In this document: one piece after another, positions 2,302-6,888 of the stretch
Layout: every line of letters starts with the position of its first letter
Position numbering within the stretch: position 1 is the first letter of the stretch
From: a virus
Taxonomy: Duplodnaviria; Heunggongvirae; Uroviricota; Caudoviricetes
Direction: 5' to 3' (one strand)
DNA length: 10,113 nt
Virus record (IMG/VR): IMGVR_UViG_2574179916_000007
The notes under the pieces: generated by a model
The model's database searches: none
Told to the model about the DNA's origin: nothing
Seen by the model: only the letters and a program-made list of their open reading frames with translations
Made by a program: the position numbers and the translations under genes

Positions 2302-2404
2302 GTTAAATCTCCAGATAGTCGCAGCACCCGTTGCGCCGCATATCTGGTTATTCTATTACCTGAAAAACCATATATGGATAAAAAGACTATAAATACCAAT
2401 AGAT

Positions 2405-2421
2405 ATTACCTTTCGGGTAAT
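2405..2421. promoter_or_regulatory. Operator-like inverted repeat ATTACC-TTTCG-GGTAAT (copy 1 of 3)
   Basis: Perfect 6-bp arms with a 5-nt spacer, 76 nt upstream of the ATG at 2497. The same TTACC-N5-GGTAA core recurs at 3854..3870 and 4914..4930. Confidence 0.5.
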
Positions 2422-2457
2422 TTGCAAAACGTGCTGGATAGCAAACAAATTATTTGT

Positions 2458-2477
2458 TACTGTATAAACATACAGTT
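2458..2477. promoter_or_regulatory. LexA (SOS) box
   Basis: TACTGTATAAACATACAGTT has perfect CTGT-N8-ACAG half-sites and 17 of 20 matches to the consensus TACTGTATATATATACAGTA. It lies 20 nt upstream of the ATG at 2497 in an AT-rich promoter-like stretch. Confidence 0.7.
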
Positions 2478-2496
2478 ATTGCATGGAGAAGATAAG

Positions 2497-2754
2497 ATGC
2501 AGCAGTATCACTATCCACTGGAAGACGGATTTACCGAAAGGATTCACACGCCGGGAGGCGTCAGGTCACTGGTGGAGGGATCGCACTTGATGAAATTACT
2601 CCGGGATCTCGATAAGGATGGATTTAATGTCGATGGCCCACTTGCCGAACTGACTGCACTGATTAACTACGTCACCAGCTCACAGATGTCTATGCAGGAT
2701 CTGCAAACACATCTCGACTATTGTGCCGAACAATTACGAAAACAAACCACATAA
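2497..2754 (+). CDS. Small (85 aa) antirepressor-like protein, a stand-alone homologue of the Ant C-terminal domain; probably SOS-inducible
   Basis: ATG at 2497 is preceded by GGAG 8 nt upstream. The product (LMKLLRDLDKDGFNVDGPLAELTALINYV...MQDLQTHLDY) aligns with the C-terminus of the 4138..4829 product (LMNLLNQLQEDGHDVSGAAAELTTMFCYI...LRDIQTHAEY). The longer ORF-track start at 2374 would place the LexA box and operator repeat inside coding sequence. Confidence 0.6.
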   Translation: MQQYHYPLEDGFTERIHTPGGVRSLVEGSHLMKLLRDLDKDGFNVDGPLAELTALINYVTSSQMSMQDLQTHLDYCAEQLRKQTT

Positions 2755-2776
2755 AGAAAAGGCCGCGAAAGCGGCC
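2753..2776 (-). terminator. Rho-independent terminator for the minus-strand two-gene operon
   Basis: Perfect hairpin GGCCGC-GAAA-GCGGCC at 2761..2776, followed on the minus strand by a U-rich run (complement of AAAGAAAA at 2753..2760). It sits directly after the stop of the 2778..3284 gene and also just after the stop of the plus-strand small gene. Confidence 0.6.
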
Positions 2777-2777
2777 A

Positions 2778-3284
2778 TTAACAGTCGTAAAATTCTGGGT
2801 CCCACAAACTAGCATCGCGCGGCATGGATTCTAACTTTTTCAGCCGCAAAATTCTGTCACACTCGACAACTAATTTTTGCTTCTGCTCGTCAATTTCTAC
2901 TGTCTTATGTGCTGGTTCATCCCAATAATCCAGAAGGAAGGCATGGCGTTCAGATGTGACCAGATAAATCACATACACGTCACTGGTTGGGATCTTTTTA
3001 TGCTTGTTAGTGGTCTTGTCTTTCTTCCCAGACGCCCAGTTTTTCCAGCATTGTTCCGTACCGCTCTCACCAAACTTGTCAGTATAGTTTCCGATGTTTA
3101 CGTGAACGTGGCGTATGTGATATTCCAGCATTTCTTTCGGTGGATCCCGAAACAGAGTGTCCTTTCCGAAATCCTTATGATGACCGTAGCGCCAGTGATC
3201 TATGAACGCGTTTTTGATAGGTATTAGCTCAGGGTCCTTCCCAAAAATTCCAGGGTGAACCAACCCCTGGAATTTATTCAGCAT
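2778..3284 (-). CDS. Putative toxin of a two-gene module (168 aa); tentatively YafO-like mRNA interferase
   Basis: Start taken at the internal ATG (3284..3282), which overlaps the stop of the upstream gene in the arrangement GATGCTGAATAA (translational coupling). The ORF-track N-terminal extension would overlap the upstream gene by about 100 nt. His-rich motifs DFGKDTLFRDPP...LEYHIRHVHVNIGN and VIYLVTSERHAFLLDYWDEPAH resemble, from memory only, the YafO family (FGRD...HIHL...PEPH). Confidence 0.65.
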   Translation of the reverse strand: MLNKFQGLVHPGIFGKDPELIPIKNAFIDHWRYGHHKDFGKDTLFRDPPKEMLEYHIRHVHVNIGNYTDKFGESGTEQCWKNWASGKKDKTTNKHKKIPTSDVYVIYLVTSERHAFLLDYWDEPAHKTVEIDEQKQKLVVECDRILRLKKLESMPRDASLWDPEFYDC

Positions 3285-3693
3285 CGTCGTAGAGCTCCTG
3301 AGCCATATCTTCGGCAGTGCGTGCAAACATCCTGCGCGAGATTGCATGAGATTTCTCGACGGACATCTTTGGGACCTCATGCATAACATTTTTGGGAGTT
3401 GTGTAATAGCCTATTACAATTTTCACACCTGACTTATGATTAATATCAGCATAATATACTTCTTGTTCAGACGTTTCACGACGAACATAATCTGCCAGTT
3501 TTCCACATTTAAATTCCCCTCCCTGATGTTTTAAAATCTCCTCAACTGCACTATTTTCAGTGAAATACCGAATAAGAAATTTCTGTCCAGACTCTTCAGC
3601 ATGAGGTATAACAGTATTATTGGAAGCCCGAACAATGGCCTTACTCAATATTTCATGGTCTTTATTTTTTTCTGATTTCCTCAAATGCTGCAT
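3274..3693 (-). CDS. Putative antitoxin / partner protein (139 aa from first ATG) of the two-gene module
   Basis: ORF ending 8 nt inside the start of the downstream gene. The first ATG (3693..3691) has AAGAGAG about 8 nt upstream; alternative GTG (3723) or TTG (3729) starts would give up to 151 aa. The C-terminus is acidic (EDMAQELYDDAE), as in many antitoxins. No recognisable DNA-binding motif and no family identified. Confidence 0.6.
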   Translation of the reverse strand: MQHLRKSEKNKDHEILSKAIVRASNNTVIPHAEESGQKFLIRYFTENSAVEEILKHQGGEFKCGKLADYVRRETSEQEVYYADINHKSGVKIVIGYYTTPKNVMHEVPKMSVEKSHAISRRMFARTAEDMAQELYDDAE

Positions 3694-3825
3694 TACTGTA
3701 GCTCTCTTCGTGTTCACGGGCACCCCCAACTACCTCTAGGGTAAACATTCTATCGAAAGTATACGCATACTGGCAAAAAAATAGGCAGGTATTTTCTGAA
3801 ATGGGATAAATCAAACCATATAGGG

Positions 3826-3855
3826 TTGAAATAACGTGAGTTATGCATTTATTAT
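3826..3855 (+). promoter_or_regulatory. Candidate sigma70 promoter reading toward ant
   Basis: TTGAAA (3826..3831), 18-nt spacer, TATTAT (3850..3855). The operator repeat copy 2 begins at the 3' edge of the -10 element. Confidence 0.35.
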
Positions 3856-3870
3856 TACCTTTTCGGTAAA
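3854..3870. promoter_or_regulatory. Operator-like inverted repeat ATTACC-TTTTC-GGTAAA (copy 2 of 3)
   Basis: TTACC-N5-GGTAA with perfect 5-bp arms, overlapping the predicted -10 and transcription start of the ant-proximal promoter. Confidence 0.5.
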
Positions 3871-3962
3871 TTTACATTGCACTCCTCTTGTGCCATAGTA
3901 ATCGGGCACTGGCAAAATCCAGTGCCGGGATTGGTCTCCCGGATTACTACAGAGGCACATAT

Positions 3963-3982
3963 GCCGCATAAGCGGTTTTTTT
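3963..3982 (+). terminator. Terminator-like short hairpin plus U7 within the ant upstream region (possible attenuator or sRNA 3' end)
   Basis: GCCGC-ATAA-GCGG(T) stem-loop followed by TTTTTTT on the plus strand. The stem is short (4-5 bp), so this is weak on its own. Upstream hairpins lie at 3905..3926 and 3925..3942. Confidence 0.35.
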
Positions 3983-4137
3983 ATGTGTAAAGCGCACCTA
4001 TTCTATGGTGGGCTGTGTGGGGGCACCGAAAGGTGCGCCGGGTTCCTTTGTAGCCGGTAAGACCAACTCTGCACAGTTCACCACCATCTGATTGGTCTCA
4101 GCGGTGGTGATTAACCTAACTACAAAGGTGATCGCTA

Positions 4138-4829
4138 TGAATACCAAACCTTCCATCTTTTCCTTTGAGTCATCCTGCCAGATCCGTATGTTCATGATTG
4201 ACGGAGAACCTTGGTTTGTCACCAAAGATGTGTGCAATGCTTTGAATATTGATGTTACACAAGCGAGAAAACTTGATAAAAAAGGCTGGAACAAAAAGGG
4301 GCTGTATTCAATACAGACCCCTGGTGGAATACAAGAACTATCCATCGTTTCAGAATCAGGTCTCTACATCCTTATTCTGCGTTGCAAAGAGGCAATGACT
4401 GAGGGAACGAGAGCATTCAGATTTCTTGAATGGGTTACAGGTGAGGTTCTTCCTCAGATCCGCCGCACCGGAAGTTACATTAAAAACTCGCTCCCGCAGG
4501 AAGAACGCATAAAGATGGTTGCCGACCAGGTAGCCAACGCCACAGCATCAGCAGTGATGCAGGCAATGAAGGTAGAGAACAAAACCTACAGCGCCCCACT
4601 GAAGCCCGGCTACCGCAGCCTGATTCATTCGCCGTCTGGTGTTCTCGGCCTGACGGAGAACTCACTGCTGATGAATCTGCTAAACCAGTTACAGGAAGAC
4701 GGGCACGACGTATCGGGCGCGGCGGCGGAGTTGACCACCATGTTCTGCTACATCGTCGGTGTGAGCAAATGCCTGCGTGATATCCAGACGCACGCGGAGT
4801 ACATCAACGACAAAGCAGGGTTCTTCTGA
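4138..4829 (+). CDS. ant: Phage antirepressor (Bro-N N-terminal domain plus Ant/KilA-C-type C-terminal domain)
   Basis: ATG at 4138 with AAAGGTG 7 nt upstream; the ORF-track start at 4092 is a non-ATG alternative. The N-terminus (FESSCQIRMFMIDGEPWFVTKDVCNALNI...SESGLYILILRCKEAMTEGTRAFRFLEWVTGEVLPQIRRTGSY) matches the Bro-N pattern. The C-terminus is homologous to the 2497..2754 product. Confidence 0.85.
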
Positions 4830-4913: not shown

Positions 4914-4930
4914 ATTACCCGATTGGTAAA
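4914..4930. promoter_or_regulatory. Operator-like inverted repeat ATTACC-CGATT-GGTAAA (copy 3 of 3)
   Basis: TTACC-N5-GGTAA with perfect arms, between the candidate promoter and the GAGG ribosome-binding site of the 4951 gene. Confidence 0.5.
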
Positions 4931-5773: not shown

Positions 5774-5845
5774 GTGGACGAAACAAAAGTCAGTGCTACA
5801 CTCATTGACGCCACATTGAGGTGGCTTATAGATGGAAATTTCACA

Positions 5846-6007
5846 ATGAAAAAAGCATTTGCTGCACTGTTCGTTTTGTTGTCTCTGGTAGCTTCAACTC
5901 AGGCCTTTGCCGGTCGTTGTCAGCACGACAGCGATACTGCCGCTGACGGCTCCCGCTGCGGTGGGCGTTCTGCGGATTCCCGCCCTGGCGGCGGTGGCAT
6001 TCGTTAA
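5846..6007 (+). CDS. Small secreted peptide (53 aa precursor with Sec-type signal peptide)
   Basis: ATG at 5846 with GGAAA about 7 nt upstream. The N-terminus MKKAFAALFVLLSLVASTQAFA is a classic signal peptide with an AxA cleavage site. The mature part is Gly/Ser/Asp-rich with two Cys. A possible promoter is TTGACG (5805..5810) with TATAGA (5827..5832). The ORF-track GTG start at 5774 overlaps the upstream terminator. Confidence 0.45.
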   Translation: MKKAFAALFVLLSLVASTQAFAGRCQHDSDTAADGSRCGGRSADSRPGGGGIR

Positions 6008-6036: not shown

Positions 6037-6888
6037 TCACTGTGCAGTTTTCGCTGATCGATTTTCAGCTCTAAATTCAAGAACCGTTTCAATATTTCTT
6101 TCCTTCAGCATATCAATAACATTTTTATTCATTTGACTATCACTGGTTAATAACTGGTAAACGTTGCTTCTCTCTTTATCAGAGTTTTCTTTAACAGCTG
6201 CTTTGCATGCCAAATGCTTATTGAAATTTTCTACATCGCTAGTACAGGAATTTACGGCTGCTGATGAAATATCAGACGCTGAAGAAACACCGTCATCCAA
6301 ACGTTTTATAGCATTTTCTATACATGAGTTAAGGGAATAAACGACAACTGAGCGATACCCTTCAGACGCACACCATTCTAAATTTCTTGAAGGATCGAGT
6401 GGTTTTACTTCGCTGGATTGAATTAACTTGTCAAAAACTGACTTATATTCAATCTGTTTTTTATCTATAGCCCATACTTCAGTAGCTGATTTATAATTCC
6501 CCGTATGCCTATTAACATCAAATCCATGTTTTATAAGCAAATCTGCCCATGAAAGATTTATTGATTCATTGTTATGAGGCCATTTTCCTGTCAGAACCGC
6601 CCCCATAGACCCCATATATCCGCCATATGATGGTATAGCACCATGGCTCAGTAACTTCTCTGCAACCACAGGGCAATTAATTACATAAGAGGCGTAAAGC
6701 CCATTCCATAAAGCCCCTCTATAGTAATCGCCACGATTAGGTTCTTTTAAGTCGATAGCCTTTGATAATTGTTCGCACGTTTTGCATGCATCAAAGTTAT
6801 CCTTATTGCATTGCAATGAACTGGCAGCTGTAGGATTTACAGAGACTATTGAAAGCACTATGCCAAAAAACAAATTTATTTTTTTCAT
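6037..6888 (-). CDS. Secreted or periplasmic protein of unknown function (283 aa), AT-rich moron at the end of the structural operon
   Basis: ATG at 6888 lies 1 nt after the TAG stop of the upstream 1065-aa gene (TAGGATG), implying coupling. The N-terminus MKKINLFFGIVLSIVSVNPTAA is a signal peptide and is not a lipobox. The mature protein has multiple Cys. The gene is visibly lower in GC than the upstream gene. Segments VAEKLLSHGA and ADLLIKHGFDVN weakly resemble ankyrin-repeat helices. Confidence 0.75.
   Translation of the reverse strand: MKKINLFFGIVLSIVSVNPTAASSLQCNKDNFDACKTCEQLSKAIDLKEPNRGDYYRGALWNGLYASYVINCPVVAEKLLSHGAIPSYGGYMGSMGAVLTGKWPHNNESINLSWADLLIKHGFDVNRHTGNYKSATEVWAIDKKQIEYKSVFDKLIQSSEVKPLDPSRNLEWCASEGYRSVVVYSLNSCIENAIKRLDDGVSSASDISSAAVNSCTSDVENFNKHLACKAAVKENSDKERSNVYQLLTSDSQMNKNVIDMLKERNIETVLEFRAENRSAKTAQ

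Follow-up and report, generated by a model that had tools for sequence, protein, structure and literature searches.

The window analysed here is a 10,113-nucleotide stretch of DNA from a virus of the class Caudoviricetes (IMG/VR record IMGVR_UViG_2574179916_000007), and its minus strand carries two overlapping genes that very probably form a type II toxin-antitoxin cassette. As a moron, an autonomous accessory element of a Uetakevirus-like phage, the cassette would combine a toxin of the YafO superfamily (gene 2) with an antitoxin of a new, modular family (gene 1). This reading draws on gene structure, homology, fold, conserved pairing, co-variation between the toxin and the antitoxin tail, and the pattern of selection across related cassettes. 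What is new here is the definition of the partner family, which has a tail co-varying with the toxin and an exchangeable, fast-evolving N-terminal module, together with the operator box that the operon shares with its neighbours.

Organization of the two-gene operon

The putative antitoxin gene precedes the toxin gene. The features of the operon are listed below (aa, amino acids; nt, nucleotides; GC, guanine plus cytosine content; omega, the dN/dS ratio of nonsynonymous to synonymous substitution rates).

3717..3274, minus strand: gene 1, a 147-aa putative antitoxin with a GTG start, member of the uncharacterised family phrog_9503
3385..3717, minus strand: fast-evolving exchangeable N-terminal part of gene 1, recognised by low identity, omega of 0.3-0.55 and 34-38% GC
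3277..3384, minus strand: conserved C-terminal 36-residue tail of gene 1 (MHEVPKMSVEKSHAISRRMFARTAEDMAQELYDDAE), the proposed toxin-binding helix, recognised by co-variation with the toxin, omega and helix prediction
3284..2778, minus strand: gene 2, 168 aa, a predicted toxin of RelE/ParE (BECR) fold from a divergent branch of the YafO superfamily, recognised by homologue profiles, a structural model, its name in the Prokaryotic Genome Annotation Pipeline (PGAP) and a phrog_1651 match
3284-3274, minus strand: gene overlap ATGCTGAATAA, 11 nt, with the toxin start codon within the last codons of the antitoxin gene
3776-3747, minus strand: sigma-70-like promoter TTGCCA-18-TAGAAT, with the -35 and -10 elements kept in relatives
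2776-2751, minus strand: intrinsic terminator, GGCCGC-UUUC-GCGGCC followed by UUUUCUUUAU, with a 6-bp all-GC stem (2776-2761) and a T-run

Gene 1 ends with TAA at 3276-3274 and has four candidate starts: TTG 3729 (151 aa), GTG 3723, GTG 3717 (147 aa) and ATG 3693 (139 aa). Judged from sequence, GTG 3717 is the most likely one, because homologues have ATG exactly there (MNTKR...), a GGGGG stretch lies 5 nt upstream, and PGAP makes the same choice. Gene 2 extends from ATG 3284 to TAA 2780-2778. In group A cassettes the overlap is likewise 11 nt long, and those of groups B and C have 14 nt; an overlap is present in all 47 scored cassettes (see below) and probably couples the translation of the two genes. 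The terminator begins 1 nt past the toxin stop codon and has a fold energy of -13.7 kcal/mol (z = -2.4).

A first-pass annotation of the window, made from its letters and open reading frames (ORFs), had described two overlapping minus-strand genes of 139-151 and 168 aa with an AT-rich upstream region of their own and a strong hairpin terminator, inserted between phage genes. Each of these points stands. Both ORFs are present, and the range of 139-151 aa spans the alternative starts; the region upstream of the operon (3750-3899) has 33-34% GC and contains the sigma-70-like site; and the terminator is an all-GC hairpin with a T-run. The phages phiV10 and PAS61 keep the flanking genes and lack the two-gene cassette, which is therefore an insertion in a variable accessory region. 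With its own promoter and terminator, and absent from these two phages, the cassette can therefore be regarded as an autonomous unit.

A divergent YafO-superfamily toxin

The product of gene 2 appears to represent a divergent, sub-threshold branch of the YafO superfamily, and the link, based on sequence comparison through intermediate relatives, is solid though transitive. Of 11 close homologues of the window toxin, ten weakly match the YafO family PF13957 (best E 1.6e-5). A profile of close toxin homologues searched against 1.84 billion representative proteins retrieved only 71 proteins, and 32 of the 53 aligned family members match PF13957 at E <= 0.01. The most distant members retrieved with this toxin profile (A1), at library-wide E <= 5e-4, have the canonical YafO size (131-152 aa) and score 40-87 bits against PF13957, whose cut-off is 25 bits. 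In the alignment of 53 sequences including YafO of E. coli K-12, residues F27, G40 (FGKD), H61 (HVH), Y107 and H126 (PAH) are invariant, D42 and P48 show at least 90% conservation, and the family motif positions FG[KR]D, HxH, Y and AH are kept throughout. The structural model of the window toxin has a RelE/HigB-like alpha/beta fold. The motifs quoted in the first-pass annotation (FGKD, YHIRHVHVNIGN and DYWDEPAH) are found in the gene 2 translation, and its suggestion of YafO proved right, though only by these indirect tests, namely homologue matches, profile retrieval, invariant residues and fold.

PGAP names gene 2 'type II toxin-antitoxin system YafO family toxin', so the toxin assignment as such is not new. 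Its product matches phrog_1651, and the PHROGs families of both proteins are listed as function unknown. A sequence search of solved structures gave chance-level matches only, and a Foldseek search of viral structures (BFVD) with the toxin model returned none at E <= 0.001. Large RCC1-repeat and GCP6 proteins in the output of the toxin profile were rejected as repeat-driven false positives. The toxin gene is under strong purifying selection, with omega of 0.02-0.04 at a synonymous divergence (dS) of about 1; a gapped codon alignment of toxins sharing 77-79% identity gave a nonsynonymous divergence (dN) of 0.13.

The partner family and its two parts

The product of gene 1 has no match in Pfam, NCBIfam, PADLOC or PDB sequences. 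A search of 5.8 billion protein clusters with the gene 1 profile revealed only 48 relatives, none of which has a precomputed Pfam domain and all of which carry the source name 'hypothetical protein'. They come from Escherichia, Klebsiella, Citrobacter, Enterobacter, Serratia and Atlantibacter, and in the data examined the family appears to be confined to Uetakevirus-like accessory regions of Enterobacterales.

The family alignment separates two parts, with the last ~36 residues (VPKMSVEKSHAISRRMFARTAEDMAQELYDDAE) near-invariant and the remainder highly variable. AlphaFold2 (AF2) predicts only a C-terminal helix in this protein (residues 124-147 of the 151-aa form). The tails of every group, including those of the 59-aa partner in phage TL-2011b and the short partner at locus L042 (our numbering), align with one gapped column and share the motif [VI]-x-[KR]-[ML]-[ST]-x-x-E-[SA]-x-x-[IL]-S-[RF], which is followed by an acidic end. 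A resemblance of the tail to the C-terminus of YafN, noticed by eye (ISRR...DM...YDD versus ITRR...DM...FND), was rejected as it found no support from BLASTP, hhalign or a hidden Markov model (HMM) of the tail; in the HMM test (2000 shuffles) YafN ranked 1592 among 1603 scored sequences.

The GC content is 34-38% over the codons of the N-terminal module (3350-3700) versus 43-53% for the tail codons and the toxin gene, and this lower value fits a separate origin of the module. One module type, MSKIVALIA...LGYQIVRGTHVVFRY or MSKIVALIA...LAKKLGYQIVRGTHVVFRY, encoded by the upstream ORFs of L021-L026 (for example L021 3655-4011), gave a sub-threshold match to HicA_toxin in Pfam (E = 0.12; 12.9 bits versus a 27-bit cut-off), a weak lead only. 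Some of the N-terminal modules may be RNA binders resembling double-stranded RNA-binding domains.

Conserved pairing, co-variation and selection

About 50 cassettes were examined, and 47 of them, representing 30 distinct protein pairs, were scored. Besides the window, the sources were 38 viral contigs, a single Serratia genome and six contigs of metagenomic or assembly origin. In all 47 the partner ORF lies upstream and overlaps the toxin start, and the same is true of TL-2011b. The pair is kept in every cassette examined, in agreement with the coupled operon proposed in the first-pass annotation.

The tail and the toxin vary together. Where toxin identity is 95% or more, the tails are 89-100% identical; tail identity is 81-89% at a toxin identity of 77-79% and 19-28% at one of 40-45%. 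The identity of the N-terminal part is just 12-32% even among cassettes with toxins at least 95% identical. At the codon level the tail shows omega of 0.00-0.08 at dS from ~0.3 to saturation, a regime like that of the toxin, so its preservation reflects selection and not recency. With omega of 0.3-0.55, the N-terminal part evolves ~10 times faster than the tail.

Exchange of the partner gene is visible in individual cassettes. In L006 the tail has a dS of 1.06 versus 0.04 for the toxin. Between L006 and L007 the toxin genes are identical (dS 0), while dS is 0.64 in the tail codons and 0.99 in the codons of the N-terminal part; whole antitoxin alleles have therefore been swapped beside a fixed toxin, with the protein sequence of the tail kept. 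The MHRTKRAGPN module and its promoter are found with group A tails in L017, L043, L046 and L048 and with group B tails in L018 and L019. Module types are thus also shuffled across tail classes.

A shared palindromic box and the regulatory neighbourhood

The window contains four copies of a palindromic box, TTACC-N5-GGTAA (extended form ATTACC-N5-GGTAAT), against 0.23 expected, and each is located just upstream of a transcription unit:

2406-2420: box upstream of the gp19-like ORF
3730-3744: operator-like box CTACC-N5-GGTAA (one mismatch) of the toxin-antitoxin operon, placed after the -10 element and before the ribosome-binding site
3855-3869: box at the promoter from which the isrK/C4/ant unit is divergently transcribed (plus strand)
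4915-4929: box upstream of orf113/DUF2335

In 399 kb of related loci, 127 exact copies were found in 70 distinct sequence contexts. The box is present upstream in all four N-domain cassette types, and also in phiV10 and PAS61 although both lack the cassette. It is probably the operator of a phage regulator controlling the whole accessory/immI-like region. Since the operon promoter shares it, the operon probably belongs to a phage-level regulon and is transcribed under the phage's own regulatory circuit; with such control the antitoxin itself could do without a DNA-binding domain.

Upstream of the Bro-N antirepressor gene (4092-4829, plus strand), Rfam models identified the Hfq-binding small RNA isrK at 3906-3982 (+) with 74.7 bits and the C4 antisense RNA at 4001-4088 (+) with 78.6 bits; the a1/b1 C4 targets were matched at 3893-3945 (+), below threshold. 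The segment 3893-4088 (+) is predicted from these matches to be a P1/P7-type immI antisense control unit, divergent from the toxin-antitoxin operon. On the other side of the operon, the ORF at 2374-2754 (+), convergent with the toxin gene, is a homologue of epsilon15 gp19 and phiV10 gp24. Its ~85 C-terminal residues recur at the C-terminus of the Bro-N antirepressor (phrog_450 and phrog_15539 match both). Only an 85-aa form of this ORF is called by PGAP; its start at 2497 is preceded by the box at 2406-2420.

Source phage, distribution and second cassettes

At 100% identity, the segment 2600-3900 of the window matches both Escherichia phage EC.W1-9 (PP445227) and prophages in 39 complete E. 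coli genomes. The window encodes a tailspike, the gp19-like ORF, the Bro-N antirepressor, a DUF2335 protein and a DUF919 injection-type protein. On the basis of this gene content and of partial matches to phiV10, TL-2011b and PAS61, the source appears to be a Uetakevirus-like (epsilon15/phiV10) temperate podophage. Of 5426 complete E. coli genomes, 58 have the toxin gene, always on the chromosome and inside a prophage. An exact-pattern scan of genome contigs identified one locus only, in Serratia aquatilis; because that scan depends on exact patterns, the distribution was estimated from viral contigs and E. coli genomes.

Some related prophages (L007, L016 and L010) have a second, paralogous YafO-like cassette ~2 kb or less from the first:

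L007 1418-1930 and L016 1584-2009: group C cassette, toxin 47% identical
L010 1662-2105: TL-2011b-like cassette, toxin 32% identical

The tails of co-resident cassettes are just ~28% identical, which suggests that the two pairs are insulated from each other.

Two further accessory ORFs of the window have signal-peptide-like N-termini and are hypothetical in RefSeq: 6037-6888 (-), of 283 aa (MKKINLFFGIVLSIVSVNPTAASS...), and 5774-6007 (+) (...MKKAFAALFVLLSLVASTQAFA...). They may encode secreted or envelope proteins.

Proposed mechanism and biological role

From these results we infer a ribonuclease activity for gene 2, neutralisation by the tail of gene 1 and a biological role for the pair. By analogy with K-12 YafO, gene 2 would be a RelE-fold endoribonuclease cutting mRNA under translation on ribosomes and so halting protein synthesis. 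The C-terminal ~36 residues of gene 1 would form a helix that binds and blocks the cognate toxin, and this tail would be the specificity determinant that co-evolves with it. The N-terminal ~110 residues would be an exchangeable module, presumably dispensable for neutralisation because minimal 59-aa partners lack it. Instead of serving as a classical autorepressor that binds DNA, such a module would set the stability of the antitoxin or sense a trigger.

For the role, abortive-infection protection of the lysogen is plausibly the most likely, with prophage stabilisation second. The lysogen would be protected against a superinfecting phage by abortive infection once the supply of antitoxin fails. 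Defence is favoured because the cassette is autonomous and sits in a variable hotspot, is present or absent among close relatives, occurs as paralogous double cassettes and shows fast turnover of the N-terminal module. A more specific version holds that the module is a sensor or specificity domain, which recognises, or is targeted by, a component of the invading phage, so that the tail is released from the toxin and infection is aborted. We regard this version as unlikely at present; if it were true, module alleles would give different anti-phage spectra over a fixed toxin-tail core, and transcription would be set by the phage-wide operator and not by antitoxin autoregulation.

An addiction or maintenance module, which acts by post-segregational killing, arresting or killing cells that have lost the prophage, and contributes nothing to defence, is a possible explanation, if a rather unlikely one. 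This is the classical role of type II pairs on mobile elements, and it would suit both a toxin gene restricted to chromosomal prophages (58 of 5426 genomes) and a cassette transcribed as an autonomous unit. However, two different paralogous cassettes within 2 kb, as in L007, L016 and L010, would be redundant for this purpose, integrated prophages are seldom lost anyway, and the fast turnover of the antitoxin N-terminal part is left unexplained. Defence of the lysogen also has to be weighed against a function in the phage's own infection cycle, such as host translation shut-off or lysogeny timing, with the cassette co-expressed with the antirepressor operon under a shared phage repressor and silent in the lysogen. 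The ATTACC-N5-GGTAAT box, which is common to the operon promoter, the divergent isrK/C4/ant promoter and two further units and is widespread in related phages, cassette-free ones included, speaks for such a link, as does the position of the cassette, which always adjoins the immI-like region. Yet a toxin cleaving translated mRNA would strike phage mRNAs too, the cassette is dispensable (phiV10 and PAS61 live without it), and the protein that binds the box may act as a repressor or as an activator. We consider this function quite improbable. There is very little room for the view that gene 2 encodes a RelE-fold protein that is inactive or has been put to another use, and that the pair is no toxin-antitoxin system at all. 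It could appeal to the missing direct family match and to an insertion of ~35 residues relative to K-12 YafO (about 63-100), which is modelled at lower confidence. Against it, residues conserved across the YafO superfamily are retained, the toxin is under strong purifying selection (omega 0.02-0.04 at dS about 1), and the partner tail co-varies tightly with it.

A type II cassette with a YafO-superfamily toxin, plausibly serving lysogen defence, therefore remains our preferred reading, and the following results weigh against it. The first-pass annotation had pointed to PF13957 in Pfam: the 168-aa protein of the window has no match to this family even at E <= 10, nor any NCBIfam match, and the family is reached, weakly, through 10 of its 11 close homologues. 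Against K-12 YafO, BLASTP finds a match of 54 residues with just E = 0.002, and hhalign with the single K-12 YafO sequence gives a probability of 7%, though the alignment is collinear over 110 columns. Structure prediction, also suggested at first pass, yielded the RelE/HigB fold for the toxin but only a poor AF2 model for gene 1 (predicted local distance difference test, pLDDT, 44; below 50 in the N-terminal part), which offers no basis for a fold search. Gene 1 has no recognisable DNA-binding domain, and no helix-turn-helix, ribbon-helix-helix, AbrB or Phd domain was detected in any of nine N-domain variants; the partner is indeed as atypical as it had been described, and belongs to no annotated family. 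Should a repressor use the box as its operator, transcription of the operon might be held down in lysogens, a poorer fit to defence, and the shared operator could mean that the operon is co-regulated with the antirepressor. The defence assignment drew no help from PADLOC-DB v2, which has no defence-system family for either protein at E <= 1, and in the literature no experimental report on toxicity, neutralisation or defence was found for the family.

Comparison with known systems

To our knowledge, YafO is the least studied RelE-type toxin. YafO is one of 13 BECR-fold toxin families with the gene order antitoxin then toxin (PMC11980606). A SLING survey of E. coli found 13 partner clusters for YafO-family toxins, with about 8% known antitoxins (PMC10790755), and the antitoxin family of the present cassette gives this gap a concrete shape. 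Type II systems are known to mix antitoxin modules (PMC3141249). Here, a toxin-matched tail of ~36 residues should suffice for neutralisation. If the front module decides which phages trigger the toxin, the cassettes would be a simple natural system for learning how toxin-antitoxin defence gains specificity; if not, they would be a further mobile variant of toxin-antitoxin pair, housed in an accessory hotspot of the phage.

Among the closest known systems is YafN-YafO of E. coli K-12 (PF13957), which has a toxin of the same superfamily, with FG[KR]D, HxH, Y and AH collinear over about 110 columns, and likewise consists of an antitoxin gene followed by an overlapping toxin gene. K-12 YafO cleaves translated mRNA only, an activity known for this YafO protein only (PMC2814082), and by analogy the same cleavage of translated mRNA is expected of the window toxin (PMC2814082). 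The window toxin is longer (168 versus 132 aa), as it has a Trp/Cys/Lys-rich insertion of ~35 residues (about 63-100) and a C-terminal extension not found in K-12 YafO. In contrast to YafN, the window partner is not of the Phd/YefM type, with nil similarity to YafN by all three methods (BLASTP, hhalign and the tail HMM). The cassette is phage-borne, whereas K-12 YafN-YafO belongs to the SOS-regulated dinB operon.

The RelE/ParE ribosome-dependent mRNA interferases HigB2 (PDB 5mje), HigB1 (7nbu), RelE, YoeB and YafQ share 7-16% identity with the window toxin. These proteins are about 85-120 aa long and lack its insertion and C-terminal helix extension, and their antitoxins are of the HigA, RelB, YefM or DinJ types with defined DNA-binding domains. 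A further close counterpart is gp45/gp44 of phage TL-2011b, a related phage whose corresponding accessory region holds this cassette of the same type, composed of a 59-aa partner and a 181-aa 'YafO family toxin' that is 32% identical to the window toxin. The TL-2011b partner has the window tail motif M-[ST]-x-[DE]-x-[SA]-x-x-[IV]-S-R-x-[FM]-F and consists of a basic N-terminus and the tail only, the N-terminal module of ~100 residues being missing.

Defence toxin-antitoxin systems with a variable sensing domain, such as fused CapRel, provide an analogy only and have no homology to the window cassette. They, too, combine a conserved element that neutralises the toxin with a hypervariable module in the context of a prophage, whereas in the cassette the toxin and the neutralising functions are carried by two separate proteins.

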